Assembly: GCF_050296975.1 (NCBI RefSeq) | Contig: NZ_JBNKRX010000036.1 | Span: 40,019-104,018 of the forward strand | DNA length: 64,000 bases | Source of the DNA: Sulfurimonas sp. | GTDB taxonomy: Bacteria > Campylobacterota > Campylobacteria > Campylobacterales > Sulfurimonadaceae | Direction: 5' to 3' | In this document: positions 3,628 to 28,308 of the stretch, piece by piece | How the letters are laid out: each line of letters opens with the position of its first letter | Numbering within the stretch: position 1 is the first letter of the stretch | Notes under the pieces: generated by a model | What the model was told of the DNA's origin: nothing | Seen by the model: the letters and a program-made list of their open reading frames with translations, nothing else | The model's database searches: none | Position numbers and translations under genes: made by a program

Positions 3628-3675
3628 AGTTATTTTTTTTCTTATCACATACTTTATTTTTTAATTTTTGTGATT

Positions 3676-4008: not shown

Positions 4009-4243
4009 GATTTCTCTTTTTGTACTAAAAAATTAATGCTGTGTTAATATCTCATTCATATAATAAATTTTCATAAGTATTGACTATATGATTACAATTC
4101 TTTGTTCCAAAAAATTGACATTTCGTACCCTCTATTTTTAGCTAATTTAAGCCAAAAAGTAGGCTTATTTTTTTGTCAAAAATCCAAAAATGTGTTTTAA
4201 TAAATTTAGTTGCGCAACTATTTTACATTTTAAATCAAAACAA

Positions 4244-6132: not shown

Positions 6133-6312
6133 ATTATATCCTTTGTAAAAAGTATATAGTATCACATATAAAGAATATATTAACATCACTAAACTATTTA
6201 AATCTACTCAAATATATTTATTGAGTAATAATATAATAAAATGATGCAATAAATTAATAAATACATAAGTTATTATACTTTATCATTCATTAAATCATTC
6301 AAGGAGTCCGAA

Positions 6313-6540
6313 ATGAGTAGTGAAGAAAAAGTAATATTTGATACTTTATACACTAAGTATAAAAAGATGGCTATCTCTAAAAAAGAGATGTCTCGTGAAA
6401 CAGGTATGAGTATATCTACACTTGATAGACTCAGACGTGCAGGACATGGATGTTCATATATTCAGCAAGGTGTTGGAGATGTGTCATATCCTTTAATTGA
6501 ACTAGCAAAATATTTTGCTAATACTATAAAAACACTCTAA
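6313..6540 (+). CDS. Excisionase/AlpA-like HTH DNA-binding protein
   Basis: 75 aa, 'ISKKEMSRETGMSISTLDRLRRAGHG', AAGGAG SD. First gene of the mobilization operon. Confidence 0.7.
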   Translation: MSSEEKVIFDTLYTKYKKMAISKKEMSRETGMSISTLDRLRRAGHGCSYIQQGVGDVSYPLIELAKYFANTIKTL

Positions 6541-6551
6541 GTAAAAAAAAC

Positions 6552-6920
6552 ATGACAACTACAGAGTATCAAAAAGCTTACAAGAAAAGTTATAGTCAAA
6601 AAAATAAGATTGTAACTTTTCCGTTAAGCATTCCATTTTATGATGAACTAAAACGAAGAGCTATACTTTTTGATGTAAGTGTAAACACTTACGCAAAAAA
6701 TATAGTTAATGGTTCACTCAACAGCTCTTCTGTAACAATTCTCACTCAAGAGAAACAAGAGATTATTAATGAATATATCCGTATATCAAGAGGGATTGCA
6801 AATAATATCAACCAAATAGCTCATCAAACTAATATAACTGAGCAAATTGATATAAGTATACTCATTAATGCGCTCAAAAACTACGAAGAAGAGTTCAAGA
6901 AATTAATCCAAAAAATCTAA
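6552..6920 (+). CDS. mobC: Relaxosome accessory protein MobC
   Basis: 'ISRGIANNINQIAHQTN' matches the MobC G(N)NxNQIA motif. Lies directly upstream of the relaxase. Confidence 0.82.
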   Translation: MTTTEYQKAYKKSYSQKNKIVTFPLSIPFYDELKRRAILFDVSVNTYAKNIVNGSLNSSSVTILTQEKQEIINEYIRISRGIANNINQIAHQTNITEQIDISILINALKNYEEEFKKLIQKI

Positions 6921-6923
6921 ATT

Positions 6924-7745
6924 ATGATAATAAAATCTATGAGCAGAAAAAGTAAATCTTTTTCTCAACTCTATGACTATTTTTGTCGTGAAGAAGCTAC
7001 ATATAGATTTTCACGAAACACTTATTCTAACGCATATAACAGAGAAAAAACTCTCAAAGAGTTCTACAATAACGCAAGGTATTTAAAAGGTGCTAGAGGT
7101 AATTTATATCTTTATCATGAAGTAATATCTTTAGACAAAAATAATCTCTCATCCGAACAAGAACAAAAAATACTTTTAGATCTTGTTGATAAGTATATCA
7201 GCCTAAGAGCAATGTATCATTTAAGTTTTGGAGTAGTACATCAAGATAAAGATAATACTCATGTACATTTGATGATAAGTGCCAATGAAATAGGTGGTTT
7301 AAAACGTATTCGCTTATCAAAAAAAGAGTATGCCTATATTCAAAAAGAACTGGAAAATTATAAAAATCAAAGATACCCTGAGTTAAGAAAAACAGCCTTG
7401 TATCAAGGTAGTAAAAATCTATCTAAAGCTAAACAAAAAGAGCAAGAAATAACTATCAGAGGTGCTACAACTATTAAACAGGAGATATATAACAATCTTC
7501 AAAGTGTATTCAATAAAGCAAGTTCATTAACATATCTCAATAATCATTTAAAAAATCTTGGTTATAAAGTCTATAAAAGAGGTAAAACTATCAGTATTAC
7601 TTACGAGGGTAAAAACTATAGATTAAAAACTCTTGGACTGGAACAACAATACAAAAACACTCTTTCAAAACTTGAAAGAATAAAAGAAAGAGAAATTAAA
7701 CGGGATAAAACTAAAGAAGATAGAAATATAAATAGAGATAGATGA
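6924..7745 (+). CDS. Relaxase/mobilization nuclease (MOBP-like)
   Basis: 'YHEVISL' and the HUH motif 'VVHQDKDNTHVHLMISAN'. Confidence 0.85.
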   Translation: MIIKSMSRKSKSFSQLYDYFCREEATYRFSRNTYSNAYNREKTLKEFYNNARYLKGARGNLYLYHEVISLDKNNLSSEQEQKILLDLVDKYISLRAMYHLSFGVVHQDKDNTHVHLMISANEIGGLKRIRLSKKEYAYIQKELENYKNQRYPELRKTALYQGSKNLSKAKQKEQEITIRGATTIKQEIYNNLQSVFNKASSLTYLNNHLKNLGYKVYKRGKTISITYEGKNYRLKTLGLEQQYKNTLSKLERIKEREIKRDKTKEDRNINRDR

Positions 7746-7792
7746 TATTCAAGAAAAACAAGAACTAATAGAATTTAGCTAAAATATGCACT

Positions 7793-9295
7793 ATGGAAAT
7801 TTTAGCTCTTATATTTATAACTTTTATCGCTTTTATGGGTATGAACGGACTATTTAGAAAAATGGGTATTAAAGCACTCAATCCGTTAGGCTTGATAGTA
7901 TCTTTTTTAACATCTCCACCACTTAAAAGTGATGGGATGATGAATAAACAAGAAGAGTTAAAAATATTTTCACGCTTTAATGACGGTCTTTTAATAGATG
8001 GAAAAAAGAAAAGACTCTCTTTAAAAGAGAGTTGTAACCACTTGGCACTTTTTAGCAGAACAGGTGGAGGAAAAACTACTAGCTATGTAATTCCAAATAT
8101 CTTTAAATTAGCTTCTGAAAACTGCTCTATGGTAATTACTGACCTAAGTGGGGAGCTATATGAAAAAACAAGCGGATATTTAAATGCTCAAGGCTTTAAA
8201 GTATATGTACTTGACCCGAAAGATTTAGAGAGTTCTATACGATACAACCCTCTTGAATATGCTAAAAGTTCAATCTCAATTGATATGGTTAGTGAAATAC
8301 TTATAGCTTCTTCAGGTCTGAAAGGTACAAGGGCAGAAGACAAAATATGGAGTGATGGAGCAAAGCATATAATCTCTATATTTATCAAGGTACTTAAAGA
8401 GACAAACGACAAACGATTTATCAATCTAGCAAATGTTAGATATATGCTAAACAATTTTGGAAGAAACGGACAGGCTCTTGATGAGTTCGTGAAGACGTAT
8501 GCAGATGATAAAACCTTTGAAGAGTACAAAGGGTTTGTCAACGGTAATGAAAAAACTATTCAAAGTTTTATAGCTACTGCAAATGCTTCATTAAGTCCTA
8601 TCGGGATTAATGATAATCTTGAAAAACTTACTTACTCTCACTCTATAGACTTTAAAAAATTTAGAGAAGAAAAATCAGTCGTATATATCCGTATTGAACA
8701 ACAATATCAGGAACAATATAGCTTTTTACTCAATCTCTTTTATGCTCAACTCTTTAATGAGATGATGGATAGACTGCCTACACAAAAAGATTATCCACTT
8801 TACTGTTTATTAGATGAGTTTGGGAATATGCAGATACCTAGATTTTCTTCAATCATTACAACAATTAGAAAGTACAAAGTCTCTATCTCTATTATCTTAC
8901 AAAATATCAATCAATTAGTAGCAAAATACTCTGAAAATGAAGCTAAGACTATACTTGATGGTGGTATTGCCTCAAAACTAATATATAGCGGTGCTGATTT
9001 AGATTTAGCAACACAACTTGAAAAGATGTTCGGTCATAAAGAGAGTCTAAAACAACAAGCTAATGGAACTCATCACTATGAAAAAGAGAGTGTTATGAGT
9101 GTAAGTGAAATAAGAACTATGAAAGATAATGAAGCTTTATTTGTGTATGCGAATAAAAAGCCTTTAAAGCTAGATGTAAAACCATATTTCAAAGATATGA
9201 TGTACAACAGTTATTCAAGATTAGCACCTTATCAATCAATGCAAAATACCTATGCTGATAGGGTGGTTTATGTTGATTTAGAAAATGTGGAGTAA
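7793..9295 (+). CDS. virD4: Type IV coupling protein (VirD4/TraG family)
   Basis: N-terminal TM, Walker A 'SRTGGGKTTSYVIPN', 'TDLSGELY', Walker B 'LLDEFGN', 'RKYKVSISIILQNINQL'. Confidence 0.9.
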   Translation: MEILALIFITFIAFMGMNGLFRKMGIKALNPLGLIVSFLTSPPLKSDGMMNKQEELKIFSRFNDGLLIDGKKKRLSLKESCNHLALFSRTGGGKTTSYVIPNIFKLASENCSMVITDLSGELYEKTSGYLNAQGFKVYVLDPKDLESSIRYNPLEYAKSSISIDMVSEILIASSGLKGTRAEDKIWSDGAKHIISIFIKVLKETNDKRFINLANVRYMLNNFGRNGQALDEFVKTYADDKTFEEYKGFVNGNEKTIQSFIATANASLSPIGINDNLEKLTYSHSIDFKKFREEKSVVYIRIEQQYQEQYSFLLNLFYAQLFNEMMDRLPTQKDYPLYCLLDEFGNMQIPRFSSIITTIRKYKVSISIILQNINQLVAKYSENEAKTILDGGIASKLIYSGADLDLATQLEKMFGHKESLKQQANGTHHYEKESVMSVSEIRTMKDNEALFVYANKKPLKLDVKPYFKDMMYNSYSRLAPYQSMQNTYADRVVYVDLENVE

Positions 9296-9298
9296 TGA

Positions 9299-10846
9299 GT
9301 GGAAAATGTAGACTTACTTTTAGATACTGTTGGTATATACAATAAATGTGAAGTGATTGAAATATTTGGATATGACAACAAGAAAAAAAAAGCTTTCAAT
9401 ATTTATACATTAGTTATTTTTGAAAACACTAAACAGATAGAAATTGAAGGCTTATTAACTGATAAACTAAATATCTTTTCTTCTGTATCAAATATTAAAT
9501 GGGGTATAAAAAGAAGAATAGTAAGAATAAGCAAAATAAAGAAGTTTTTTGAATTATTGAAAAATAAAAATATTTACAAAATAGATAAAGAATTATCTGT
9601 TGGACAATTAAAATATTTAGATATGCAATTTATACAAGCAAATGATTCTTTTATCAAGCCTCAGTTCAATCACATATTAAAAAACAACTTTTATAATGGT
9701 TCATATGTACTAGAGTTTTTTGATGAAGAAAAAAGTAATAATCAGTTTTTACTAGAGAATGCCGTATTGCTAAATGCTTTTAGTGAAACTATTGGAGAAA
9801 TATTGCCAATTAAACTTGCTAATCTGTCTGATAGATTAGGAAATGTGGTTTTTCAATTTCCTATTAATATCTTCAAGCTTGAATATACTACAAATAGGTT
9901 GGGCAATCCACCACGATATTCTGGATTAAATATTGAGATTTCTCCAAAAATAAAGAAATATGACATTACTAATTTAGAGATTAGAGTGTATGAAAATAAT
10001 GACAATATCATTGTTCGTCAATATTCAATAATGGTTCAAAATAACTTAACTGAAATCATGTTAGATGATTGTTTTGGAACTAGACTTGAAGTAATGGATA
10101 AAGATACATCATTGTTACTTTATAGAAATAAATTCTCTATTATGAAAGAATTTAATTTTCAGATGAATTTAATAAGTCCTCAAGATAGAGTTTTTAAGTT
10201 AAATGGTGATGTGCAAAAAATTCCAATAGAGCATAATTCAACTAACAGTATTGGAAAAGCAAATCAAAAAAAGAAAGAATTTAATGAGTGGATTCATGAC
10301 AGAAAATATGAGCAAGAACTCAAATATTTAGAACAAACTAAGTCATTTATTCAATACTATGGTAAAAAAGATGAAAATATTAAGGCTTTAAATGACATAA
10401 GGTTTTTAATTAATCAATATGGCAATAATGGGGTCTATTTATGGGACCCGTATTTAAGTGCTACAGATATTAAAAATACATTGTATTTTAGTAAATTTTC
10501 ATATGTTGAATTAAGAGCGATAACAGGTTTAAAACAAGATTCACAAAAATCACAAGTAATTTTTGATATGCAAAATGAATTTAATCAAGATGATAAACAG
10601 TTTTTATTTTTAAATTTAGAAGTGAGAGGAAAATATGGCACAAATGGTTATGAATTTCATGACAGATTTTTAATATTTCCTCTAGAAAAACCTAAAGTTT
10701 GGTCATTGGGTATTTCAGTTAATCAGCTAGGAAAAGCACATCATATTTTACAAGAAGTAAAAAATGCTCAACATATTTTAAATGCATTTAATCAATTATG
10801 GATAGGACTAGATAAAAGGGAATGTTTAGTATGGAAGAGCAATTGA
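9299..10846 (+). CDS. VPA1262-family-like protein with C-terminal PLD-like domain
   Basis: C-terminal 'GVYLWDPYL...HDRFLIFP...KVWSLGISVNQLG'. The family name is from recall and was not searched. Confidence 0.6.
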   Translation: MENVDLLLDTVGIYNKCEVIEIFGYDNKKKKAFNIYTLVIFENTKQIEIEGLLTDKLNIFSSVSNIKWGIKRRIVRISKIKKFFELLKNKNIYKIDKELSVGQLKYLDMQFIQANDSFIKPQFNHILKNNFYNGSYVLEFFDEEKSNNQFLLENAVLLNAFSETIGEILPIKLANLSDRLGNVVFQFPINIFKLEYTTNRLGNPPRYSGLNIEISPKIKKYDITNLEIRVYENNDNIIVRQYSIMVQNNLTEIMLDDCFGTRLEVMDKDTSLLLYRNKFSIMKEFNFQMNLISPQDRVFKLNGDVQKIPIEHNSTNSIGKANQKKKEFNEWIHDRKYEQELKYLEQTKSFIQYYGKKDENIKALNDIRFLINQYGNNGVYLWDPYLSATDIKNTLYFSKFSYVELRAITGLKQDSQKSQVIFDMQNEFNQDDKQFLFLNLEVRGKYGTNGYEFHDRFLIFPLEKPKVWSLGISVNQLGKAHHILQEVKNAQHILNAFNQLWIGLDKRECLVWKSN

Positions 10847-12309
10847 CGGAACTTTTAAAAAATTCATTAGAGTCTATAGGTAATATACAACCAAACATTC
10901 ATATTCTAGATAAGTATTATGAACTATTTGATGAAAAAGACTATAAAAAGCTTTTTTTAGACAATAATATCAATGAAGTTTATAATGACATGCAAAAGTA
11001 TTATTCTATAGATTTAAATTATTTGAACTATGGACATAATGAAATAGAAATGCAAAAGTTATATCAAGAATTGATATTTGCAGTGTTTAATACAGAAGAT
11101 ACTCATTCAAAAATAAAGTTAATACCACTAGTTGTCTTTTTAGATAAAGATTATATCTTATATGAGTTTTTATACGAAAAAGATTTTTTTACCAATATAA
11201 ATGAGTTTAAGAGTTATTGTCTTGATATACTCCATGGATTTCAAGTAAATTTAGATTTAACTAATACTCCTATGAATCATTGGGAAAATGATATCGTTCA
11301 TGCTTATACTAATGGTATTAAAACTTTAGATTTTAAAAATATTTATAAGTTTATCGATTCTTTGCAGAGAGGTATTGGAATAGTATATCATCCATATATA
11401 GATTTTTTATCTTATATCTCGAATAAACTTTTTTTTGAAGATTTATGTAATATATTAGAGAATCAAGAAACTCTAAAAATTAAATATTTAACACATGCAT
11501 TGACGATAGAAGATAGATTGAGGTTAGCCAATAAATCAATCAGTGACTTGATGCTTTTTGAGACCATTAGAGAGACAGTATATTTTAAATCTAATAATCA
11601 ATATAGTTTAAATTTGCTCAAGCCTGAGAGGGAATTACTTACAAATCTAATTGTTAAAATAGCGAATAATGAAGTGATATGGAGTCAATTTTTAGATTAT
11701 TATTTAGAATATCCATCTAGAGCAACACAATTGTTCTCTCCATTAGGATTGGCATTAGAGCAAATAGATCAAAGTAAAGTACTAATAATAGGTGAAAAGA
11801 TAAAAATTGACAAGTTCTTTGATAATGATAGTAAAGAAGCTTTAAATAGTTGCTTTGCATACCTGAAAGATGAAAAATTAAAAAAAAGACTAATTGAAAA
11901 TATTTTCATTAGATGGATAGATTTTGTAGATAATTATGATGATACTCTTGTAAATATAATATTATCGGATGTGATTGATATTGTTTTGATGTACGTTAAT
12001 GAATACATGGATAAAAAAGACATTATGAATAATATAAATCATACTATTTACGATATTGAAGAAATTAACAATAGATGGTTTATTGATGCAACAGACAAAG
12101 ACAACTCTATGTTTAAATTGTTATCAAAACTTTTTGTTTATGGTTTTTTCATCAAGCAGTATGCTATGCCTGATATAGAAATAAAAATGAGAGAATTTGT
12201 AAACTCAAGAAAGTTTTTTGTTGAGAATGGTAATCAACATGAAATGAGTACAGCGGAATTGTTCTATCAAAATATTTTTAATAAAAATATGGATGAATTA
12301 AATGGGTGA
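10822..12309 (+). CDS. Hypothetical helical protein, 495 aa, overlapping the upstream gene
   Basis: Long ORF overlapping both neighbours. No motif recognised. Confidence 0.75.
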   Translation: MFSMEEQLTELLKNSLESIGNIQPNIHILDKYYELFDEKDYKKLFLDNNINEVYNDMQKYYSIDLNYLNYGHNEIEMQKLYQELIFAVFNTEDTHSKIKLIPLVVFLDKDYILYEFLYEKDFFTNINEFKSYCLDILHGFQVNLDLTNTPMNHWENDIVHAYTNGIKTLDFKNIYKFIDSLQRGIGIVYHPYIDFLSYISNKLFFEDLCNILENQETLKIKYLTHALTIEDRLRLANKSISDLMLFETIRETVYFKSNNQYSLNLLKPERELLTNLIVKIANNEVIWSQFLDYYLEYPSRATQLFSPLGLALEQIDQSKVLIIGEKIKIDKFFDNDSKEALNSCFAYLKDEKLKKRLIENIFIRWIDFVDNYDDTLVNIILSDVIDIVLMYVNEYMDKKDIMNNINHTIYDIEEINNRWFIDATDKDNSMFKLLSKLFVYGFFIKQYAMPDIEIKMREFVNSRKFFVENGNQHEMSTAELFYQNIFNKNMDELNG

Positions 12310-13078
12310 TATTAATTATATTCAACAGTTCATGAATGAACTTTCAAATATGGATGTAGCTAATTTCATATTTGTAGCACTTTTATTTTCTGTACCATTC
12401 TATTTTTCAAAAAAGTCAGAAAGCTTATTTTTCCATTCTTTTTATAGCCTCATGGGAATTTATATGCTTTTTACAATGGATGACCCTAGAGTGATTTATG
12501 ATTTGAAAATGCTTGTAGGTTTAGGACTTGTAATACCACAGACTAGATTCATTATTCAGTTTACAAAAGACACAATATTTACTATCAAAATGATGACTGC
12601 AAATACCTACTATTTCTTTGTAACTTTATATTATAAAGTACTTAGATTTATAAATTGGATTCGTTCATTATATGTAATGATTCAGAGCTTTTTTAAAGGT
12701 TTTGAAGCAAAAAGTAGGGCAGATAGTAGAGATAAAAAAGAAGAATATCAAGAAAGCAATAATCAGCAAACTTACGAAGATTATAAACAAGAGCAGAAAC
12801 AAAAAGATTCATCACAACAAAGAAGTTATGAAGAACCAAAACAAGAACAAAAGACATATACCCAACAAGATGATGAGTATGCGAGATTTTATAGTGAAAG
12901 TGTTTATACAGTTTTAGGAGTGAATGTAGATGATGATTATAACACTGTAAAAAAAGCATATAGAAAATTAGTTAGAGAATTTCATCCTGATTTACATCCT
13001 GAAAATATAGAAAAATTCACAGAAATTACACAAAATATCAATAATGCTTGGGAGAAAGTCTCAAGTTGGAAAAAATAG
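12302..13078 (+). CDS. Membrane-anchored J-domain (DnaJ-like) protein
   Basis: N-terminal TM helices, Q/E-rich linker, C-terminal 'YTVLGV...VKKAYRKLVREFHPDL...INNAWE' with the HPD motif. Confidence 0.88.
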   Translation: MGDINYIQQFMNELSNMDVANFIFVALLFSVPFYFSKKSESLFFHSFYSLMGIYMLFTMDDPRVIYDLKMLVGLGLVIPQTRFIIQFTKDTIFTIKMMTANTYYFFVTLYYKVLRFINWIRSLYVMIQSFFKGFEAKSRADSRDKKEEYQESNNQQTYEDYKQEQKQKDSSQQRSYEEPKQEQKTYTQQDDEYARFYSESVYTVLGVNVDDDYNTVKKAYRKLVREFHPDLHPENIEKFTEITQNINNAWEKVSSWKK

Positions 13079-13099
13079 ATTATTTCATAACTATTTACT

Positions 13100-13441
13100 A
13101 TGAGAGAAAAACTAAAACAATTACTAGAAGAGAGTCATTGAAGTATAACTGAGGAAGTTATTAAGGAAGCTATGGATTATCATAGCCCAAAAGAGTTCTT
13201 TGAAGATTTGTTGCAATACGGTTGTGAGTCGTGAATGGTACCAAGTTTGATATATTATAAAGATACACATGAGTTTTATGATAAACACTATGAAGAGATA
13301 GAAGAGTTAAGGGCAGAATTAGAAGAGCAGGGTATAGAGATAAATATTCCAAGTCATAGTGATTTGAAAAACTTTTTTGCATGGCTTAGTTTTGAAGAGA
13401 GAGCTAGAGAATTGTATGATGATTTAGAGATGAGTAGATAA
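13100..13441 (+). CDS. Small acidic protein, 113 aa, code 25 (the track shows only 13235-13441)
   Basis: MREKLKQLLEESH*SITEE...LLQYGCES*MVPSLIYYKDTHEFYDKH. Reading TGA as Gly gives 'GCESGMV..LIYY.DT..FY', a motif I recall from small phage/MGE proteins. Two TGA, ends TAA. Confidence 0.72.
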
Positions 13442-13478
13442 AAAAATTTGATTAAATTACATTTTAACATTATGATAT

Positions 13479-13622
13479 ATGCAAAATTACGAAGACTATA
13501 AAAAAGAATTTCAAAAATTATATCCTGATATTTCAGAAGATTTTTTGAAAGAATCATATGATTTAAGAATTGAATTTTGGAGATGATTAATAGAAAATTT
13601 TGATAATTTTTTTGATTTATAA
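13479..13622 (+). CDS. 47-aa peptide immediately upstream of the recombinase, code 25
   Basis: MQNYEDYKKEFQKLYPDISEDFLKESYDLRIEFWR*LIENFDNFFDL, one TGA, ends TAA 11 nt before the recombinase ATG. Confidence 0.5.
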
Positions 13623-13633
13623 CTAAATAAATT

Positions 13634-15184
13634 ATGAAGGCAATTATATATTATAGAAAGTCAACTGATAGAGATGATAAGCAAGCTAACTCACTTGAAC
13701 ATCAATTAGAAAATTGTAAAAGAGTCGCTTCAAATTATTCTTTAGATGTTGTAAAAGAGATTTGAGAGAGTAGAAGTGCAAAAACAGAATGAACTAGAGC
13801 TTGATTTAATGAAATGATACAACTATGTAAATCTAAAAAAATTGATTTTATAATAATAGATGAGCCAAAAAGACTATCAAGAAATAATCTTGATACATCA
13901 AGAGTTATAGACTTACTTGATAAAGAACAAATTAAATGAATATTATGAACTTCTAGGGAGTATAGAGCTGATAATTCAAGAGATAAGTTTTTGCTTCAAT
14001 TAGATTTATCATTATCAAAAATGGATAATGAGGATAGAAGTAAAGATGTAAGAGATAAGATGAATACTTTTGTGAAAAATAAGAAAAGATTTCCTTGAAA
14101 AGCTCCTTTTTGATATAAGAATATAACGATAAAAAAGTGACATAAAGATATTGTTGTAGATAAAAAAGAAGCAAAAATAGTTAAAGAGATTTTTCAACTT
14201 AGATTAGAGGGAAAAGCCTATAATACAATTGCTTTGTATTTAAAAAAGAAATATAAAAAAACTATAGAACTGAACTATACAGCTCAAAGAATTCATAAAA
14301 TAGTATGTAATAAGTTTTATTATTGAATTTTTCAATGGGCAGGGCAAGAAATAATATGAGGACATACTCAACTGGTATCAAAAGATATGTATGATAAAGC
14401 TAATTGACTTTGAAAAGGAGTGCATGAAAAAATCACTACTTTGAGAAAAAGGGAAGCTCAATCTTACTATTTGAAGTGACTTATACAAGATAGTTCATGA
14501 ATGACATTAACTTCTTATGTAAAAAAAGGAAATATTTATTACATTACAAAATCAAGTAGTGAATTAACGATAAATATTAGTGAAAATTTATTATTTGAAA
14601 AGCTATGAGAAATAATAAAAAGTAGTGAAGCTTCTAAACTTTGTTTTGAACAAGTAGATAAACAAAATATTTTGAAAATCATTAAAGATGAAAAATTTGA
14701 TGTATGAAACCAAATAATTGATATTGAAAATAAAATCCTAATTTTAGAGAATAGAAAAGATACTCTACTTGATTTTCAATTGGATGGAAAAATAGATTAT
14801 GAAACATATCTATCAAAGAATAATAAATTAGTAGATGAAATTAAAGATTTACAAGAACAAAAAAAGCATTTAAAAAATGATGATTCTGAGCAAAAGTCCC
14901 AAATATTAATTGAACTCGCTTGAAGCCTTTATGGAAGCTATTTTAGAACAAATAATCAGTGAAAAGCATATATTATTAGAAAGCTGGCGATTGAACTTTT
15001 TGTAAACAACAAAAAAGAGCTTAAAATAGAGGATAGTCCTATATTTAAAAGCTCAAAAATGCTCAATTTCTCTTTTGGTACTTCCAAGGGGTTTGATATT
15101 AGAACTTATTTAAGAGAATTGTCAAAAATAGATTTAGAAGAATTAAAAGAGTTTTATGAATTTGTAAAGAGTTCGAGATTTTAA
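13634..15184 (+). CDS. Large serine recombinase, 516 aa, readable only with TGA=Gly (code 25)
   Basis: Full hand translation: catalytic 'IIYYRKST..D.Q..SLEHQ', 'E*TRA*FNEM', 'DEPKRLSRN', 'FP*KAPF*YKN', 'NKFYY*IFQWAG...*GH', then a coiled coil. 18 in-frame TGA versus 9 GGN codons, no internal TAA/TAG. Confidence 0.92.
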
Positions 15185-15194
15185 AAATAGCAAG

Positions 15195-15239
15195 AGGTCG
15201 GAAATGCGAGACTCGAACTCACAACCCCATGTTTCAAAA
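15195..15239 (-). repeat. Degenerate tRNA-Pro 3'-half (att-like), copy 1
   Basis: 40/45 identical to 16614-16658. Start of a diverged direct repeat of about 120 bp (about 15196-15320 versus 16615-16740). Confidence 0.75.
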
Positions 15240-15475
15240 GAGTTGAAATATTCTTAAGAATAATAAAAACTAAAAGTCAATAGTTTATAAAGCTGTAGTT
15301 TATCCTTGTTTTATACAAATATGTCATAGTTTCGGGCTAGATATATGAAAACTTTTTGCAAAAAGTTTAGAGTATCTTAAGTATCTTATTGATTTGTAGA
15401 CTTGCAATTTCTCAAAATATCATTATTTTTACATATAAGTATAATTGTTTTCATTTTATTTATTATTTTATTTGT

Positions 15476-16549
15476 ATGTCTAAAAAGAATTTAGAAAAAA
15501 TCAAGTATTTATTTAATGCAAGTTGAAGGATTGGGCAAGATTGATATTTAATTTATTATATGTCAGCTTTTGTAGTGAGTTATTCTTTATCAATAGTAAT
15601 GTATCTATATTCTAGTACTTTACTTGCAATCTTTGTTTTAATTTTATGATTTATATGATTATACATTCATGTAAATATGTCTATAAAAAGATGTCATGAC
15701 TTATGAAGAAGTTGATGGTTTATTTTGATTCCTATTTATAATCCTATAGCATTAATATTTTCAAAGTGAGATGCAGAAGATAACGAATATTGAAAGAAAA
15801 TAAATAGAAAAACAAATATTATTTTAATGGTCTTATGAGTATTTATGTTTTTTCTACTATTCTCATTAAAGTGAACATTTGATGAACTTAAACAAACATA
15901 TAATATAGAAAAATCTTATGATAATAATGAATATGCAAATAATATTTGTATATCTACATTTTGAATAAATTCAAGATATGCTTGAGAAATTGAAGATTGA
16001 GAATACATATGTGATTGTAAGGAATGATATGAATTCTGATGAGATAATTTGGATGAGTGTATATTGATTTCCGAAAGCTTTTCTAAAAATATATTTACTA
16101 TAAGTAATTGATTCTATATAAATAATGCTAATGAATTGATTGATTCAGAGTATAATTTAGAGTATTTAAAAGAAATAAATGAAGAAGCTAAAAAATGATT
16201 TTTAACAAGTAAATGAAATTATACTTTATTTATGTCGGATGAATTAGATTTGCAAACCGCTACTATGTATGCAGATGAAAAAAAACTAGAGCAAAATCAA
16301 ATAACTTTGAAATCATTTGTTTTGTGAATGGGATGAAAAAATATTATCAGCAATATCAACAAGGTATGATGAGTTAATTTTTTTACTTTCAATTATGAAG
16401 TTAATATTGATGGAGAAGATTATTATTATTACGCTGTATTCTGATTAATTAATGATACTTTTGAAAGTATATATATTTTTTGATTTGATAAGAGTTTTGT
16501 TGAAAAAGATTGAGTTTTTTTAATAAATAATTTAAAAATAAATAATTAA
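15476..16549 (+). CDS. DUF805-domain membrane protein with Cys-containing C-terminal region, 357 aa, code 25
   Basis: 'YLFNAS*RIG', 'KRCHDL*RS*WFILIP...K*DAEDNEY*' give the DUF805 RxHDxGxSGW...NxYG signature when TGA=Gly; also 'CDCKE*YEF**DNLDEC'. About 26 TGA by hand count, ends TAA. Confidence 0.85.
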
Positions 16550-16613
16550 TTACGTGATTGAATTAAAATAGCAGTACTTAGTAAGTAGTGCTATTCCTAC
16601 TAAAAATTACAAA

Positions 16614-16658
16614 TGGTCGGAAACGCGAGACTCGAACTCACAACCCCACGTTCCCAAA
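16614..16658 (-). repeat. tRNA-Pro(UGG) 3'-half from anticodon loop to CCA (att-like), copy 2; not a complete tRNA
   Basis: Reverse complement TTTGGGA-ACGTG-GGGTT-GTGAG TTCGAGT CTCGC-GTTTCCG-A-CCA: anticodon loop, T-arm, acceptor 3' strand. No 5' half adjacent. Confidence 0.82.
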
Positions 16659-16749
16659 GAATATAAAATATCTTAAGAATTATTGAGAAAGAATGTCAAT
16701 ACCTTATAAAGCTGTTGTTTATCCTTGTTTTATGAAATATCTAAAAATT

Positions 16750-16780
16750 AAACACTTACTAAAATTAGTAAGTGTTTTTT
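16750..16780. terminator. Hairpin or terminator candidate
   Basis: AAACACTTACTAA-AATTAGTAAGTGTTT followed by a T-run. Confidence 0.55.
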
Positions 16781-16896
16781 TTATTTTGGTTTTAAGATTA
16801 GAACTTATATAACTGAATTATAAAAAATAGATTTGGAAGAATTAAAAGAGTTTTTATAATTTTATTAATAATTAAATTTTACTTTCAAGTAACTGT

Positions 16897-18423
16897 CTAT
16901 TTAATATCAATATCTTCATTTTCTTTATGTATATTCATATTTAATGACTCTTGCATAAATTTCATCATTTGTTCTTCATTCCAATCTTTCATAGGATAAC
17001 GCTCTTTATAGAATGTATCAAAGTTTTCATATTTTGCATTATTTTGTAAATAAAAATCAAATTCATCTATGGATAGGACTAAGTAATTAGAATGGTGAGC
17101 CAAAATTTCTGGAAATCGACTTACTATGAGATATTTAAATTTTTTTCTTATATTATATTTTTCATGATTTTCAAGAAGATGTTCATATCTTTGATTAACT
17201 TTCTGTTCCCATTCATTTTGCAATTGTTTTAATCTTTGATTTAATTGTTCAAAATTACCAAAATAAACATTAAGTGGTAATGAATGATTTTTAGCTTCAA
17301 TAAGAATATCATAATCATCATTTTTAAGTATTAAATCTATATCTCCAAGTTTATTCTTTCTTTTATATAATTCAATCCCTGTAGCCGAATGACTAAAATT
17401 GTATTTTTTAGCTATTTGAATGATATCATCTACAAAAAAATCAGACATAATTTGTTTATGTTTTTCTTTATATTTTATGTTTTCAATGATTGAATAATGG
17501 AAGTTTGTGAACAAGCTATCTAGTAAAAGTTCAGGAACAATAATATATTTATTCTTGATTTTTAATAGTGGTCTTCTTTCAAGATAATGATAGTTTAATT
17601 CAAAAGATTTAAAATCAGATTTTTTGAATGTAAAATTGCGTATAAATGACATTCCTTTTTTTCCAAAGGTATGCAGGACATAGTTCTCATCAACTATGTA
17701 AGATTTTATAACTTGTCTGATAGTTTCAATAGATTGAACATCAAGGTTGCCATTATCAAAATAAGTCATATGTTGTTCATTATTTTTAATATTTACTAAA
17801 TAATTGTTCAATAACTGTTTAATATTTACACTGATTTCTTGAATTGATAATCCAAAAATATCTTTAGATATTTTATTATAGTTTGTATATTTTTTTTTAA
17901 AGTTTTCTAATAGTTCATCAGGTTGTAAAGGAGTTTTATTTTGGCTAGCTGTAAACTCTTCCAAGCGTGAATCGTATTGAATAGCCTTTTGTTTATTTGG
18001 ATTTTTAGTTAAAGATTTTGTAAAATCTATTCTAGCATATCTATTATTTTCCCCTTTCATCTCAAAATCATCAATTAAAGTAAAGAGTGATGAATACTCA
18101 TGAAAATTATGAATACTATTCCCAATTTTTGTAAGAAATAAAACTTTATCTTTTTCTATCTCATAATCGTTTGTTGGTATAGATATATTTGAATATTTAT
18201 AAATACATGAAATAATGTATTTATAAACATCGGTACCTCTATCAATACTCATATGAGTTAGGTCATTTAAATCGTTTATCTTTAGTGTTCTAATTGTATG
18301 AATATAATATAAAAAATAAGCAAGTTCCCCAAAAGTTGAATTTTTACAGAGTTCTTTAATAATAAAAAGTCTTTTATTAAGTTCTTCTTGAATTTTAAAA
18401 AGAGCAGTTTGTTCATTGTTCAT
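16897..18423 (-). CDS. Hypothetical protein, 508 aa, with C-terminal PD-(D/E)xK (NERD-like) nuclease motif
   Basis: 'KLGDIDLILKNDDYDILIEAKNH'. Standard code, ends TAG. Confidence 0.65.
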   Translation of the reverse strand: MNNEQTALFKIQEELNKRLFIIKELCKNSTFGELAYFLYYIHTIRTLKINDLNDLTHMSIDRGTDVYKYIISCIYKYSNISIPTNDYEIEKDKVLFLTKIGNSIHNFHEYSSLFTLIDDFEMKGENNRYARIDFTKSLTKNPNKQKAIQYDSRLEEFTASQNKTPLQPDELLENFKKKYTNYNKISKDIFGLSIQEISVNIKQLLNNYLVNIKNNEQHMTYFDNGNLDVQSIETIRQVIKSYIVDENYVLHTFGKKGMSFIRNFTFKKSDFKSFELNYHYLERRPLLKIKNKYIIVPELLLDSLFTNFHYSIIENIKYKEKHKQIMSDFFVDDIIQIAKKYNFSHSATGIELYKRKNKLGDIDLILKNDDYDILIEAKNHSLPLNVYFGNFEQLNQRLKQLQNEWEQKVNQRYEHLLENHEKYNIRKKFKYLIVSRFPEILAHHSNYLVLSIDEFDFYLQNNAKYENFDTFYKERYPMKDWNEEQMMKFMQESLNMNIHKENEDIDIK

Positions 18424-18549: not shown

Positions 18550-21500
18550 ATGGCAGTTTTTGAAATAGATAATGAAGATATAAAAAGATTAGGGGAAGTA
18601 GAGTTACCAAAACTTGTGTATCAAATAATGTATTATGAGATAGCAAAGCTAAACTTATTAAATCAGGGATTACATATATCATTAAATACAAAAACCGGTG
18701 ATGGTGGTTCAGATGGAGAATTTAATATTTTTAATAAACAGATACCTGCTAACCACCAATTTTTACCAAACAACAGTATTGTATTCCAATTTAAAGCAGC
18801 TGAAATAGGTGCGAAAGCTTGGTTTGAGAAAGAAATTATAGATGAGAAAACAAAAGATTTAAAACCAAAACTAAAAGAATATATCCAGCAAAACTATACA
18901 TATATTTTAATTACCAATAGAACAGATTTACCAGCAAGTAACCTTGAGGCTAAAGAAAAAATTTTAAAAGATTTGTTTAATGATTATGGATATTCAAATG
19001 TGTCAGTTAAAATTATTGATTTAACAAAACTTGCAGAATGGGCAAATAGTATTCCTCAAATATATTTGACACAAAATCCTAATACAAGGTACTTTGAATT
19101 ATTTGAAAGTTACGAAAATGAAATACGACAAAATAGTGAAGATGTTGAATATGTGAATGATGAAAAAAGAGAAAGTGATATATTACAAATTAGAGATAAT
19201 ATAAATAACACTCTTAGAACAGGAACATCTTCATTTATTAGAATAGAGGGATTCTCAGGAATTGGAAAAACAAGGTTTGTTTATGAAGCATTAAATAATG
19301 ATGATTTTAAACAATTGGTTATCTATGTACAAATGTATAATGATGAACTTTTTGGAGATTTGTTATTATATTGTAAGAAACGTGCGGAAAACACTCAAGA
19401 ATTAGTCATTTTTGTCATTGATGAGTGTTCTTATGAAGATCATATCCGTATATGTAGAGGACTAAAACAATATTCAAATTTAGTAATAATTACAATTAAT
19501 CAACTTTTATCAGAGCAGGATAAAGTTAACTGTAAAGAAGAATATAGAATTACTTTAGAGGGTTTAAGTGAAGAGAAAAGTGTTGAATTGATTCAAAAAG
19601 TCAATCCAATTTTAGATAATGATATAGCTAAAAAAATTGCTTATTATACGGAAGGTTATCCAAGACTTGCATACTTTATGGCTAGTTCTTATGATGTTGA
19701 ATCTGGAGATACACATAGTGCTGATGAAAAGTCACAATTATTAGATAAAACACTTTCTACGATTACAAATGATGCAGATGAAATTGTTATTTTACAAGCA
19801 ATTTCAATTTTTAAGCTTTTTCCAGATAATGATGATGTGAAAATATATAAAAAAATTATTTTTGAACATTTTGATATTAATATAGCTAAAGCATCCGTCA
19901 TAATTCAAAAGTTGATAAAAAAAGGCATTATTAGAAATGCTGGAAGATTTTTGTATATAAGTCCAAGACCTATTTCTATTCATCTATTTAATCAGTTTCT
20001 ATCTACATATGATTATGAATTTATTGATGAATTATTTATAAAACTTGATAATCAAGGGTTAATGAATAGTTTCTTTGAAAAATTACAAGGTATTGAATTT
20101 GATTCAAGACAACACAAGGAGTTACTTTTTCGTATTCTATCGAAGCTCACATATGAACAAATAAATGATGAGTTAGGTTCAAAAATCTTCTATTCTCTTT
20201 GCTTAAAAGATAGAGAATATTCCATAGGTATGTTAACAAAATTATTTCATGATAAATCAACAGATGAGTTACTACAGTTTAATGAGGGGAGAAGGTATAT
20301 AGTATTTGCTCTTGATAAACTTATCTCTTTTGAAAATACATTTAACGATAGTGCTAAAATTCTATTCAGACTAGCCATGGCTGAAAATGAATCTTGGGGC
20401 AACAATTCAAAAGGAATTTTTAAAGATTCTTTTACATGGATACTGAGTGGAACAGAAGTAAATATTGTTGATAGATTGAACTTTTTAAAGGAACTATATA
20501 AGGAGTATTCGGACAAAGAAAGTAGGATGTTTTTATTAGATAGTTTATCTAATGCATATCCAAAGCATAGTTATATTGGTAGTCACAAAAATAGTGAAAA
20601 TTTTCCTGAAAATATCCCTGAACATTATCGTCCAAATACTCAAGATGAAATTGATGAATATTTTGTTAAGCTCAAAGAGTTAATAGCATTTTTGTATGAA
20701 CATTCCTCTGTTTATTTGAAAGGTAAAATTTTAAGTGATTTAATTTCAACGCTAAGAACTCTAATAATATATAAGCAAATTGATACATGGATTCTTGATT
20801 TTATAGTGCATAACTTAGAGGATAATACCCATTTAAAAGGAAAGTTTTTAGAAGAAATCTCTTTTACGTTAAAGCATGATAAAGGCGATAAATCAGATGA
20901 AGTATTAAAATATCTACACACTCTTAATAATAAAGCTCTTAGTACTGAAAATATTGATGAAGTAAAAGAGATGTTTTATTCAACTGAACAATATAGATAT
21001 CATGATGAAGATGTATTCAATCAGCACTGTAGATTATTAGCAGAAAATCTTTTTAAGACTAAAGATTTTGATATATTATTAAATAGTCATACTTCTAATA
21101 CTTTTTTTATAGGTAAAGAACTTGCATTAATAGATAGTGAAAACACTCTATATGATGATATTTTAGCTCTTATGTCAAAACTAGATAAAAACTCTAATAT
21201 GAGATTTATAACTGGGTATATATTTAACAATAAGATGAGTGATGAATCACAATTCAAGAAATTATTTGATGAAATATATAACAGGTTAAATGATAAGAGT
21301 TTAATGTTTGAATTTATTTATGCGTCTAATGGAAATAATGAAATTATTTTTGAATATTTGTTTTCACTTCTTGAAAAAAAAGAGATAGCTTCTGAAATGT
21401 TAGAACGCTTGATTTATGGTTTTTGGTTACGAGAAGTAAAAGTAGATGATTTTGAAAAGTTTATAGATAAAATTAATTCTATTATTGAAAATAAGTGTGA

Positions 21501-22278
21501 TAGTTTTCCATTATGTAGACAGTATATACAACAAAATAAAAATAAACACTTGATAGAAAAATATTTACCTTACTATATAAGCAACGATATATTAAAATGT
21601 AAAAATGTAAGAATAGACCGTGATATAGTGAGCATGACTGAAAGTTACTTGTCTTATGGTTTAGAATTTTCAACAACCTTATTAGAAAAAGTTTGGGAAT
21701 CAGTTCTAATAGAATTTAAGAATAATGGAAATTTTGAACGTAGTGAATTTGATAGTGTATATAAAATATTAGAGAAGTATCCTGATTTTTTTTGGAATAA
21801 ATTAAAAGATAATTTAGATGAAGTACAACCTTCTAAATATCCAACTTATAGTACTTATCTTCATTTTACTCAAGGCGGATATTTAGCTAGACATTATTCA
21901 AATTCTATTTTTAGAAATATAGATACTAAAAAGATTGTGGAATGGTTAAAAACCACTCCATTTAAAGATGCAAAATACTTAATTGCTGATTCACTTAATA
22001 TAGATTTTCAAAGCAATACTTTACCTGAAATAGTAATCAAGTTACTAGAAGAATATCCTAATGATATTGATTTGTACTATAGTATTACTGTTAAAAGTGA
22101 AGGGTGGACAGGGTCTTATGTACATGTGGCAAATGAAAAGATATCTAATGTTGATAAAATGCTTGAAGATAACAAAGATAATAAAAAAGTGATGGATTTT
22201 TTACTTTGGGCTAAAAAAAGTTTTGAATCTCGTAAAGAAAGAGCACAGAGAGAAGACGAAGAAAGAAATATATATTAA
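18550..22278 (+). CDS. Large STAND-like NTPase with N-terminal restriction-endonuclease-like domain (Avs-like defence candidate)
   Basis: N-terminal 'TGDGGSDG...IVFQFKA', Walker A 'GFSGIGKTRF', Walker B 'FVIDEC', 'EGYPRLA', and a long helical C-terminus; 1242 aa. Confidence 0.72.
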   Translation: MAVFEIDNEDIKRLGEVELPKLVYQIMYYEIAKLNLLNQGLHISLNTKTGDGGSDGEFNIFNKQIPANHQFLPNNSIVFQFKAAEIGAKAWFEKEIIDEKTKDLKPKLKEYIQQNYTYILITNRTDLPASNLEAKEKILKDLFNDYGYSNVSVKIIDLTKLAEWANSIPQIYLTQNPNTRYFELFESYENEIRQNSEDVEYVNDEKRESDILQIRDNINNTLRTGTSSFIRIEGFSGIGKTRFVYEALNNDDFKQLVIYVQMYNDELFGDLLLYCKKRAENTQELVIFVIDECSYEDHIRICRGLKQYSNLVIITINQLLSEQDKVNCKEEYRITLEGLSEEKSVELIQKVNPILDNDIAKKIAYYTEGYPRLAYFMASSYDVESGDTHSADEKSQLLDKTLSTITNDADEIVILQAISIFKLFPDNDDVKIYKKIIFEHFDINIAKASVIIQKLIKKGIIRNAGRFLYISPRPISIHLFNQFLSTYDYEFIDELFIKLDNQGLMNSFFEKLQGIEFDSRQHKELLFRILSKLTYEQINDELGSKIFYSLCLKDREYSIGMLTKLFHDKSTDELLQFNEGRRYIVFALDKLISFENTFNDSAKILFRLAMAENESWGNNSKGIFKDSFTWILSGTEVNIVDRLNFLKELYKEYSDKESRMFLLDSLSNAYPKHSYIGSHKNSENFPENIPEHYRPNTQDEIDEYFVKLKELIAFLYEHSSVYLKGKILSDLISTLRTLIIYKQIDTWILDFIVHNLEDNTHLKGKFLEEISFTLKHDKGDKSDEVLKYLHTLNNKALSTENIDEVKEMFYSTEQYRYHDEDVFNQHCRLLAENLFKTKDFDILLNSHTSNTFFIGKELALIDSENTLYDDILALMSKLDKNSNMRFITGYIFNNKMSDESQFKKLFDEIYNRLNDKSLMFEFIYASNGNNEIIFEYLFSLLEKKEIASEMLERLIYGFWLREVKVDDFEKFIDKINSIIENKCDSFPLCRQYIQQNKNKHLIEKYLPYYISNDILKCKNVRIDRDIVSMTESYLSYGLEFSTTLLEKVWESVLIEFKNNGNFERSEFDSVYKILEKYPDFFWNKLKDNLDEVQPSKYPTYSTYLHFTQGGYLARHYSNSIFRNIDTKKIVEWLKTTPFKDAKYLIADSLNIDFQSNTLPEIVIKLLEEYPNDIDLYYSITVKSEGWTGSYVHVANEKISNVDKMLEDNKDNKKVMDFLLWAKKSFESRKERAQREDEERNIY

Positions 22279-24872: not shown

Positions 24873-26549
24873 ATGTCATTAGAACAAGCAAGTTCACATC
24901 TTAATGAATGACCTAGTATTAAAGATACACCTGAGTATCAAGAACAATTAAATCATAGAGTTAAAAAAATTGAAGAGTGAGAAAAAAATTATAAACACCT
25001 AGTACAAGTAAATAATGTATTAAATGTACTTGATATACCTGATGAACAAGAACAAATATTCAGACAAACACTTGATAATTTAGATTCACAAGTTTTAAAA
25101 GACTTAACGACAAAAACTAGATGAGAAATATTAGTTATTTTAGCTAATACTACCACTGAAAATAAAAACCTACAAACAGAAGAAGACAATAATATTATTT
25201 CAAAAGAATCAGAAGCTCAAAATAAAGAATATCAAGAAACTGATGAAAAATACGAAAAAATTAAAAATATACTTCCTGATTGAATTTATAACTGAGATTC
25301 AAAATATCAAAAATTAGTACAAGCATTAAATAGCTTTGACAATTTACAAGCTTGAGAAAATTCAAACGAAAATAATGATAAAAAAATAGAAGCTTTAAAA
25401 GTTATTTTAGATGAATTAAAAAACTGAGATGTTTTAAATTCTATAGTAAAAGAACTAGGTTGAGCTAATCCAAACAATCCACAATATCAAGAATTCAAAA
25501 ATACTTTAATAAATTTAGACCCAAGTTTTAAAGAGCTTTTAGCACCGTTGGAAAGAATAGAGCAGGGTATGAATCTAAATTCTAATGATGTTGTTAAATG
25601 AATTGAAAATGACTCATGAGGAATGGTAGATATAGATTTAAAATCTAATATCTCAAGACTACATCTTCCCGAAAGTGATTATAACTTTGAAAAAGAGTTC
25701 GATAAGCAAGAGCTTTGAAAACTTCAAACAAAATTTGATATTGAGATGAAAGAACTTAAGAGAAGTACAACTTCTCTTAAAGGCTTGTACAAGCCTTTTG
25801 CCTCTTTATTTAGTGAAGTAGCTAGTGTTAATGCAGAAAACAACTTTCAAGATACTCTAAAAAGCTCTGTATCAAAATTCCAAAGAGATGCTTTTAATGA
25901 TATGGATGATGTTTATGAAAATATGGATATTGATTCAAGTATTCAAATTAATGAGGCAGACATCAATTCTCTAGCAAGTAGTAAAACTCCTGAAGAGTTC
26001 AATGAAAAAAGAGAAAAGATCTTAGATAAATTTAAAAAAATAGCTACTGTAATTGAAAACAAAAAAGAAACAATAGAGCAAAACTATAATGATGAAATTA
26101 AAGAGCTTACAACTGAAGATAGTGAAACGCAAGAAAAACAAGTTGAAGTTTTAAAATATCTAAAATCTAGTGGATTTGATTTAATTCCAAAAGAAATAAC
26201 AGATAGACTTATAAACAGCATTCAAGCAGGATTACTGATAATCCCTTGACTTGATTTAAGTATTCAAAATATAGACCTTTCTAAGTGACATTTTTGAGAA
26301 AATTCAGCTTTTATAGATAAGAGTGCTTGAATCAACATAGGTGCTAAAACTAACCTTGTAAAGTTTATGAATAAACTGATTACTTGAGATATAAATGAGC
26401 CTTTATCTGTTGATGGAATATCAAATTGAGTGACGGTAGCTAATCCAGCTTTTCTACAAAACAAATTTTTAGAATCAAATATAGCTACAAGTATGAATTG
26501 GAATTATTGAAAAATGGTTGAGAATTTGAAAAAAGATGTAAGTTCCTAG
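24873..26549 (+). CDS. Hypothetical acidic, helical protein, 558 aa, code 25 (the track shows only 25746-26249)
   Basis: Full hand translation from ATG 24873 to TAG 26547-26549. 18 in-frame TGA, no internal TAA/TAG, E/K/N-rich. Confidence 0.82.
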
Positions 26550-28283: not shown

Positions 28284-28308
28284 AAAAAGGGCTAAAAAGC
28301 CCTTTTTT
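28284..28308. terminator. Bidirectional terminator between the recoded PH gene and the integrase
   Basis: AAAAAGGGCT-AAA-AAGCCCTTTTT. Confidence 0.65.

Follow-up and report, generated by a model that had tools for sequence, protein, structure and literature searches.

Two copies of the 3' half of a proline tRNA gene flank a single gene in a genomic island of Sulfurimonas, just behind a recombinase gene. Which recombinase do these halves belong to, and how did they come to bracket one gene? These questions were addressed in a stretch of 64,000 nucleotides (nt) from a Sulfurimonas sp. contig (NZ_JBNKRX010000036.1), which is termed the window in the following. The recombinase is a large serine recombinase (LSR), the bracketed gene encodes a DUF805-domain membrane protein, and both genes carry in-frame TGA codons. 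A preliminary description had taken the halves for attachment (att) remnants next to their recombinase, left by serial integration at one tRNA or by an integron-like cassette array. Our analysis assigns the halves to a different enzyme, a short tyrosine integrase that is missing from the window, and gives the LSR a site of its own. We consider it probable that the segment 15064-16868 is a nest of scars from two site-specific recombination systems, both of them in genetic code 25 (TGA = Gly).

A repeat search of window bases 1-30000 returned two largest direct-repeat families, D1 and D2. The D1 family pairs 15182-15314 (D1a) with 16601-16733 (D1b) over 133 nt at 81-82% identity, and each copy combines a tRNA half with an arm. 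The diverged repeats begun by the halves, as claimed before, were thus recovered. The two tRNA-Pro(UGG) halves also proved real, with the corrections that they are 46 nt each (15195-15240 and 16614-16659), agree with one another at 41/46 positions and have their tRNA sense on the minus strand. A 38-nt degenerate pattern of the half matched at just these two places, with 0 matches expected by chance. The reverse complement of 16614-16659 was parsed by hand. It reads C, TTTGGGA, ACGTG, GGGTT, GTGAG-TTCGAGT-CTCGC, GTTTCCG, A and CCA, which is tRNA-Pro(UGG) from the last anticodon-stem pair to CCA. ARAGORN and Rfam (gathering and E-value modes) found no tRNA gene in the window and left the halves unreported; the halves were identified by the manual parsing and by their agreement with real tRNA genes. 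Following a proposal of the preliminary description, the fragment was compared with code-25 tRNA-Pro(UGG). Copy 2 agreed at 44/46 positions with the complete genes of two fully TGA-recoded contigs (L036/L037), and copy 1 at 39-41/46.

The two modules differ in their state of preservation. In D1a (minus strand; nhmmer arm profile E = 4.7e-40) the arm is conserved and the half is degenerate, with CCA changed to CCT and a mutated anticodon loop, so that both the CCA end and the anticodon are lost. D1b (minus strand; E = 2.1e-42) consists of a clean tRNA-Pro(UGG) 3' half and the arm, and this half is identical to those of two metagenomic contigs (L038/L039). The D1a arm shows 91% identity to the arm of contig L041 and only 81% to the D1b arm. 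Since D1a is nearer to L041 and the D1b half is identical to L038/L039, the two copies were derived separately and not by duplication in place. Overall, the half is better conserved than the arm. A metagenome search with the 27-nt half core gave four contigs. Two of them carry complete tRNA-Pro(UGG) genes, located in Gly-Ile-Pro clusters on contigs on which every gene is heavily TGA-recoded, and the other two carry half and arm modules. The half derives from a code-25 (Gracilibacteria-type) tRNA-Pro. Viral contigs scanned for the half core gave no match. Within 3 mismatches, no 5' half of tRNA-Pro was found in the window. Because the window contains neither a tRNA gene nor a 5' half, both copies are of the attP type, that is, borne by an element. 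Serial integration at one tRNA in this genome, as proposed earlier, does not fit these element-borne sites, as there is no complete tRNA here.

The owner of the D1 module became apparent from related contigs. The tRNA half with its arm lies ~80-100 nt downstream of a recoded tyrosine integrase (8-13 TGA) in L038-L042, L044/45 and L050-52, with nhmmer E-values of the module matches from 1e-13 to 1e-43. The arm module occupied this place in 8/8 sampled loci. In L038/L039 the unit stands behind the gene of a 299-aa tyrosine recombinase (9 in-frame TGA), at a distance of 90 nt in L039. These integrases are XerD-like, have ~300 amino acids (aa) and the Phage_integrase domain only, and form a family with >100 homologs. 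The arm is constant (ATATCTTAAGAAT .. GTCAA .. AAGCTGTAGTTTATCC), and all copies change from tRNA to arm at the same position. The tRNA part varies, being Pro, Trp(CCA) in L044 (module at 11004-11158) or Lys(CUU) in L050-52 (L050 11006-11157; L052 2470-2618). Such a changing identity block on an element-specific arm is the signature of attP, and target specificity appears to be swapped modularly among integrase subfamilies. The halves are genuine att material, as had been suspected.

The integrase itself is absent from the window, where tblastn revealed no homolog of the recoded tyrosine integrase. A cognate enzyme next to the site was found in 8 related contigs. In islands with the tyrosine integrase, its gene follows a DUF7222 gene and a 46-aa open reading frame (ORF), and this slot is filled by the LSR in the window. 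The DUF7222 gene (13100-13441, plus strand, 2 TGA; Pfam PF23864, E = 4.8e-25) opens a conserved recoded module consisting of DUF7222, a small ORF, a recombinase and a site. Its product is 73-75% identical to the protein encoded before the tyrosine integrase in L041/L042 and before an LSR in L033. Between DUF7222 and the LSR, a 47-aa ORF with 1 TGA and without Pfam match was read from the sequence (13479-13622, plus strand). L041/L042 carry a 46-aa ORF in the same slot, and nucleotide similarity between the window and L041 spans 13099-13510. The 47-aa ORF could encode a putative excision or directionality factor. The module is a mosaic: DUF7222, the small ORF and D1 resemble the integrase-type modules, and the LSR resembles L033/L035. 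In L035, the closest LSR relative, the sequence behind the LSR stop codon is shared with the window and diverges exactly at 15195, the start of half 1.

We analyzed the LSR in the same way. The gene (13634-15184, plus strand; Pfam Resolvase and Recombinase) encodes 516 aa with 18 in-frame TGA read as Gly. The code is 25, because TGA sits on the Gly of the RxGF motif and pairs with TGA or Gly in relatives. Homologs number ~200; among the 120 listed, most of the best-scoring ones were full length, and one was named Gracilibacteria. An alignment of 20 homologs was colinear in all of them up to '...KMLNFSFGT' and then split into two classes. The first class has a conserved tail, 'FDIRTY..LS.IDLEELKEF', which is the repeat D2a of the window. 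The second class ends in peptides translated from reverse-complement tRNA genes. A scan of species-representative genomes gave 32 LSR loci. In ~20 loci from Gracilibacteria/Patescibacteria metagenome-assembled genomes (MAGs), the match runs only to residue ~484, and the LSR 3' end overlaps or abuts a tRNA gene of the opposite strand. These tRNAs are mostly Glu-CUC; Arg-GCG, Glu-UUC, Lys, Ala or Cys also occur. The junction reads TTTCTCTTTTGGTAC/TCC..., in which TGGTA is the reverse complement of ..ACCA. The LSR crossover thus lies inside its own ORF, at TTTGGTAC (L003-L029 around the LSR 3' end; window 15040-15184). A nucleotide profile of the tail detected exactly one tail in 10 of those loci, in the same orientation and 6-11 kb upstream of the LSR. 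Almost every gene between tail and LSR in these Gracilibacteria elements has in-frame TGA, and the conserved proteins gave no Pfam match. As tRNA-fused LSRs have their tail displaced by 6-11 kb, the LSR attP lies within the last ~35 codons, and as the tail is still attached in the window, the window LSR is in the attP (unintegrated) configuration.

This attachment site spans 15064-15176 on the plus strand, with the core TTTCTCTTTTGGTAC (~15066-15083) followed by the P' arm, termed tail a, which also encodes the last ~33 LSR residues. The core of tail a is flanked by an inverted repeat (TCTTTTGG/CCAAGGGG around TACTT). The second repeat family, D2, pairs 15089-15163 with 16788-16862 over 75 nt at 84% identity. 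It marks a second, decayed LSR site, tail b (16779-16868, plus strand), detected by alignments and by the nhmmer tail profile with E = 4.6e-9. The likeness to the recombinase tail that had been noticed after copy 2 was thereby confirmed, with a length of 75-110 nt. Tail b retains TTTTGGT and the P' arm, is without 12 nt of the core (TACTTCCAAGGG) and out of frame, and is probably inactive. It forms the right edge of the recoded patch. Identity to L033/L035 does not separate tail a from tail b as the resident copy. A 12-bp hairpin bordered by T and A runs, resembling a bidirectional terminator, lies between D1b and tail b (16750-16777). In a terminator scan 3 sites were found and 0.3 expected. 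An equivalent hairpin stands before core and tail in L006, L007 and L010. The phage and plasmid collections contained no LSR relative above 30% identity. In a neighbour-joining tree of the LSRs, which was poorly resolved, the island copies were interspersed and did not favour repeated capture over shuttling or the reverse.

Between the two D1 copies lies one gene only, as had been described. Its coordinates are corrected here to 15476-16549 (plus strand; Pfam DUF805, E = 3.7e-14). The product is a membrane protein of 357 aa in which the DUF805 domain is joined to a ~250-aa C-terminal region. The gene uses 26 TGA and 3 GGN codons and, because of the 26 in-frame TGA codons, is untranslatable in Sulfurimonas. 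Only 6 homologs were found, and the best two are encoded in HSP70-like operons of fully recoded contigs with a GC content of 0.23. Since the sole clear relatives are genes of fully recoded contigs, the cargo is also of code-25 origin. When the homolog contigs were fetched and inspected for att-bracketed copies, the homologs were ordinary operon genes without att modules. D1a and D1b bracket DUF805 only; the LSR tail adjoins on the left, and the hairpin and a further LSR tail on the right.

Based on these observations, the arrangement can be read as a nested order of tail a, D1a, DUF805, D1b, hairpin and tail b. The D1 repeats would be element-borne sites of ~300-aa XerD-like tyrosine integrases, which are predicted to insert into the segment from anticodon loop to CCA of tRNA genes in code-25 bacteria. 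The 46-nt half would serve as the identity block that rebuilds the tRNA upon insertion, with the ~75-nt arm as the element side. The slot after DUF7222 and the small ORF, which elsewhere belongs to the tyrosine integrase, is occupied by the LSR in this island. The LSR in turn would recombine in Gracilibacteria with the CCA end of a tRNA, so that its ORF comes to end in the tRNA, with the tail displaced to the other end of a 7-11 kb element. DUF805 would be cargo caught between two independently derived tyrosine-integrase sites, by accretion of a small integrase-less unit in a code-25 cell and later loss of recombinase genes. We infer that recombination at the sites built the arrangement, and likewise the order of events; the recombination is placed in a code-25 cell because the recombinases are translatable only there. 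Accretion by site-specific recombination in such a cell, followed by recombinase loss, would be the most economical reading, and the recurrence of the layout with other genes in L044, L005, L006 and L007 speaks in its favour.

Several points weigh against this reconstruction. Recombination of attP with attP is not usual for tyrosine integrases. As both copies are attP-type, homologous recombination or tandem integration with joint excision is an alternative for the joining step. About 13 nt of LSR post-stop sequence stand to the left of both D1 copies, a hint that an LSR tail once preceded each D1, which would be a history beyond the simple model. An integrated copy at a complete tRNA-Pro was sought in true code-25 genomes and none was recovered. 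Two relatives do come from true code-25 genomes; one contig (L043) ends 170 nt past the gene, and the other (L049) is distant and has a tRNA 3' fragment in the other orientation. Finally, neither circles nor empty sites nor variant arrays were observed, the three assemblies of the region being identical.

The best surviving rival is an active integron-type cassette system, in which a recoded recombinase captures circles of gene and site in a code-25 cell and the DUF805 unit (1,419 bp, gene and D1) is itself a mobile cassette. We regard this as unlikely. The evidence for and against it comes mainly from loci with the same layout. The preliminary description had proposed a search for the layout with different intervening genes, and this succeeded with L044. 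There, the integrase is followed by a Trp-type site, DUF1508 with a recoded N6/N4 methyltransferase, and a truncated Pro-type site. In L005, L006 and L007 an LSR with its tail is followed by 1-2 units of gene(s) and a further tail. The order of recombinase, site and repeated gene-site unit thus occurs with both recombinase types and with different genes (L044, L005-L007 and the window), which speaks for a cassette system. In line with it, the genes between sites are recoded in the window, L006, L007 and L044, where the last site copy is the edge of the recoded patch and the first genes beyond are TGA-free. The sequence just past successive tails is also conserved within L006 and within L007. 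Against it, the cassette genes of L005 are TGA-free and distal sites are often truncated, since site 2 of L044 holds only 21 nt of the half and tail b is without its core. Circles or arrays variable within a population were not found, and the sample consists of five loci only. Moreover, we know of no activity of either recombinase class that joins an attP-type site to another attP-type site. 

The LSR arrays of Colwellia/Arcobacter, L006 and L007, showed a further peculiarity. In front of each extra tail (L006 12826-13040 and 14008-14197; L007 11948-12110 and 12909-13140) stand a GC hairpin and a 20-nt piece of the tRNA-Glu 3' end that lacks CCA, and in L006 ~40 nt of the LSR 3' end are present too. 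In these arrays the tRNA-side half-site lies upstream of the element-side site.

Plain local tandem duplication of a 130-nt stretch with later divergence, and no site-specific recombination at all, would account for two direct repeats at a distance of 1.4 kb in AT-rich DNA. It is very unlikely, as each copy resembles copies from other metagenomes at least as closely as it resembles its neighbour, and 8 other contigs carry the module as a conserved unit. The earlier assignment of the halves to the adjacent LSR, with serial integration at one tRNA-Pro, has hardly any probability left. It was suggested by half 1 starting 10 nt past the LSR stop and by the copy of the recombinase tail after half 2. 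In contrast, the junction in ~20 integrated LSR copies is at TTTGGTAC with the CCA end of the tRNA, not at the anticodon loop. The Pro-half module was absent from all other LSR loci examined (0 of ~35) and goes with the tyrosine integrase, and the LSR has its site in its own 3' end. Serine recombinases, in addition, are not known to need a long identity block. In the D1b arm we noticed a promoter-like match, TTGACA-18-TAAGAT at 16699-16670, which ends ~10 nt before the half; promoter-like matches in the region were not enriched (12 found, 18 expected), and the match was not used as evidence. Least credible of all are minus-strand small RNA genes of the tRNA-half or split-tRNA kind, with the promoter in the arm and a terminator in the inverted repeat at 16583-16611, past the half on the minus strand: the better conservation of the half than of the arm, which would also agree with them, is what an attP identity block predicts, copy 1 is without CCA and anticodon, Rfam gave no match, and neither an excess of promoters nor a 5' half was found in the window.

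We then considered the background in which these sites occur. The chromosome (28.3-64 kb of the window) follows the standard code at a GC content of ~0.35, and its real genes are without in-frame TGA, a few having TGA as stop. For three window proteins, counterparts with at least 90% identity carry the name Sulfurimonas sp. Window bases 1-28.3 kb form the island, with a low GC content (0.26). At its right edge, adjoining host xth, lies an Int_N-type tyrosine integrase (28307-29422, minus strand), and the island also encodes MobC, a relaxase and a type IV coupling protein. By the ratio TGA/(TGA+GGN), the island genes fall into two sharply distinct classes, 0-0.09 and 0.47-1.0, in a bimodal distribution. 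In the TGA-free class, any TGA is a stop codon, with TAA or TAG 2-11 codons downstream. Three genes are of this type (6921-7778, 9299-10858 and 10816-12315), and owing to the backup stops nearly the same protein would be made from them in either code. The recoded class comprises DUF7222, the 47-aa ORF, the LSR, DUF805, a 558-aa protein, bPH_2 and two small ORFs near 4 kb. Its stretches (3622-4678, 13100-16549, 24873-26549 and 27818-28273) are readable only in code 25. Over the region, the window sequence agrees at 100% with two further public assemblies, of which one is independent and made at the read level, and the junction between recoded and TGA-free sequence is therefore real. Assembly chimerism was considered and rejected, because all three assemblies agree and the pattern was found again in >15 independent contigs.

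The remaining recoded genes lie towards the right end of the island. The gene for the 558-aa protein (24873-26549; 18 TGA, no Pfam match) is kept in several islands, with 5-21 in-frame TGA in L001, L040, L044 and L052, and adds a second conserved code-25 gene to this family of islands. The bPH_2 gene (27818-28273) stands at the right island edge beside the standard-code tyrosine integrase. Its product is 56-60% identical to that of the first post-tail (attL) gene of the Gracilibacteria LSR elements L008, L010 and L012, which suggests that ~12 kb of cargo were inserted between the LSR tail and its original neighbour bPH_2. Directly past the recoded patch, 29 nt beyond tail b, a TGA-free gene encodes 508 aa (16897-18423), and it is followed by one for 1242 aa (18550-22278); neither gave a Pfam match, and both may be defence cargo. 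L050 has a 1258-aa nSTAND3-type NTPase in the equivalent place after its attachment site.

Recoded LSRs with an attached tail and 11-24 in-frame TGA were also found in Sulfurimonadaceae, Campylobacterales, Arcobacter, Agarilytica, Colwellia, Neptuniibacter and Motiliproteus sp. MSK22-1, the record of the last not being labelled as a MAG. The mosaic of TGA-free and recoded genes likewise recurs in islands of Arcobacter, Colwellia, Neptuniibacter, Agarilytica, Sulfurimonadaceae and Motiliproteus sp. MSK22-1. Ten of ten island LSR copies examined are intact ORFs, and the island LSR modules are under purifying selection, the ratio of nonsynonymous to synonymous substitution rates (dN/dS) among them being 0.06-0.25. 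L001, L002, L040 and L052 share the backbone of MobC, relaxase, coupling protein and Int_N integrase, in each case in a TGA-free form. In L050, the genes for MobC, relaxase and coupling protein (6255-9324) have 1, 4 and 13 in-frame TGA, respectively, and their products are 48-56% identical to those of the TGA-free window versions. One element backbone thus exists in both code 'dialects', as the L050 versions are recoded and the window versions are TGA-free.

A tentative possibility, which we hold to be less probable than not by a clear measure, is that of a bilingual integrative mobilizable element (IME) that resides both in standard-code Proteobacteria and in their code-25 partners from the candidate phyla radiation (CPR), of the Gracilibacteria type. 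The TGA-free MobC, relaxase, coupling protein and Int_N integrase would function in either host. DUF7222, the small ORF, the recombinase with its attP, the 558-aa protein and bPH_2 would be translatable only in a code-25 cell, where the recombinase would integrate the element at a tRNA gene and acquire recoded cargo at its site. That the attP configuration is intact, that the modules are under purifying selection and that the partition of genes is conserved speaks for such an element, as do the phages of Gracilibacteria that have been described as compatible with code 11 (PMC10746230). The Gracilibacteria-integrated elements contained no TGA-free backbone module, which is against the strongest, shuttling form of the idea. 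As the alternative, repeated capture of code-25 element fragments that are dead in these hosts remains. If the element were bilingual, the genetic code would act as a host-sensing switch, and the att arrays would be a record of visits to code-25 cells.

The bracketed cassette is in itself ordinary, being att-site scars around cargo, and its context is the larger surprise. Intact, unintegrated modules sit in the chromosomes of bacteria that are unable to translate them. The locus brings to light two systems of recombinase and site from code-25 CPR bacteria, both uncharacterised: an LSR that targets the tRNA CCA end with a crossover inside its own ORF, and a family of short tyrosine integrases whose tRNA-half cores are interchangeable on a constant arm. 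The long-standing question whether, and how, mobile elements cross the code barrier between CPR episymbionts and their hosts is thereby made testable. Code-11 pipelines shred the recoded modules into fragments, and the modules are hence invisible to standard annotation. In L053 (GCA_050297235.1, 13240-15189), a genome annotated in code 11, the LSR is annotated only as fragments of 35-49 aa.

Compared with known systems, the locus resembles an integron in that a recombinase gene is followed by one-gene units, each ending in a site, with genes that differ between genomes. Unlike in integrons, there is no IntI-type integrase and no folded site of the attC type, the sites are derived from tRNA or LSR 3' ends, and no evidence of cassette movement was found. 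The halves are also unlike a split or half tRNA gene, for which a matching 5' half (within 3 mismatches) and an enrichment of promoter-like sites were lacking. 

Integrases of the SSV1 type of archaeal viruses have attP inside the integrase gene. The LSR is similar, with a crossover in its own ORF and a tRNA as target, so that integration alters the 3' end of the gene. It differs in being a serine recombinase, in an exchange that is limited to the last ~30 codons and in an ORF that runs on into the tRNA. Its site agrees with the definition of an LSR attP, as it is linked to the LSR gene and the attL and attR halves are separated in the integrated Gracilibacteria copies. For the TGA-free island genes, the closest counterpart are code-11-compatible phages predicted to infect Gracilibacteria/Absconditabacteria, which avoid in-frame TGA and carry backup stops (Liu et al. 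2023, PMC10746230). The island genes share the avoidance of TGA and the tandem stops with these phages, but the island is a mosaic with code-25-only genes and is physically integrated in standard-code chromosomes.

The D1 sites themselves compare best with two systems. Tyrosine integrases of the P4, P22 and genomic-island type integrate at the 3' part of tRNA genes. As in their attP, the identity block runs from the anticodon loop to the tRNA 3' end, lies just downstream of the integrase in the relatives and changes with the subfamily (Pro, Trp, Lys). The present case deviates in that the integrase is a short, XerD-like code-25 enzyme that is missing here, the sites are in an island of a standard-code Sulfurimonas, and recombination is predicted. 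In contrast to the integrated form of such systems, a complete tRNA with a displaced half at the other end was found neither in the window nor in the code-25 genomes sampled. The second system are cis-mobilizable elements (CIMEs), att-flanked elements without integrase beside integrative and conjugative elements (ICEs) or IMEs, as in the ICESt1 family. Unlike in CIMEs, both copies here are attP-type instead of attL and attR at a host tRNA, a tyrosine and a serine system are nested, and the neighbouring recombinase is non-cognate. The concept of CIMEs and tandem accretion is covered in a review on IMEs (PMC5704250). The likeness to it lies in a recombinase-less segment between att direct repeats next to an integration module, in a site that is used by related autonomous elements, and in copies that have diverged as expected of separate elements.

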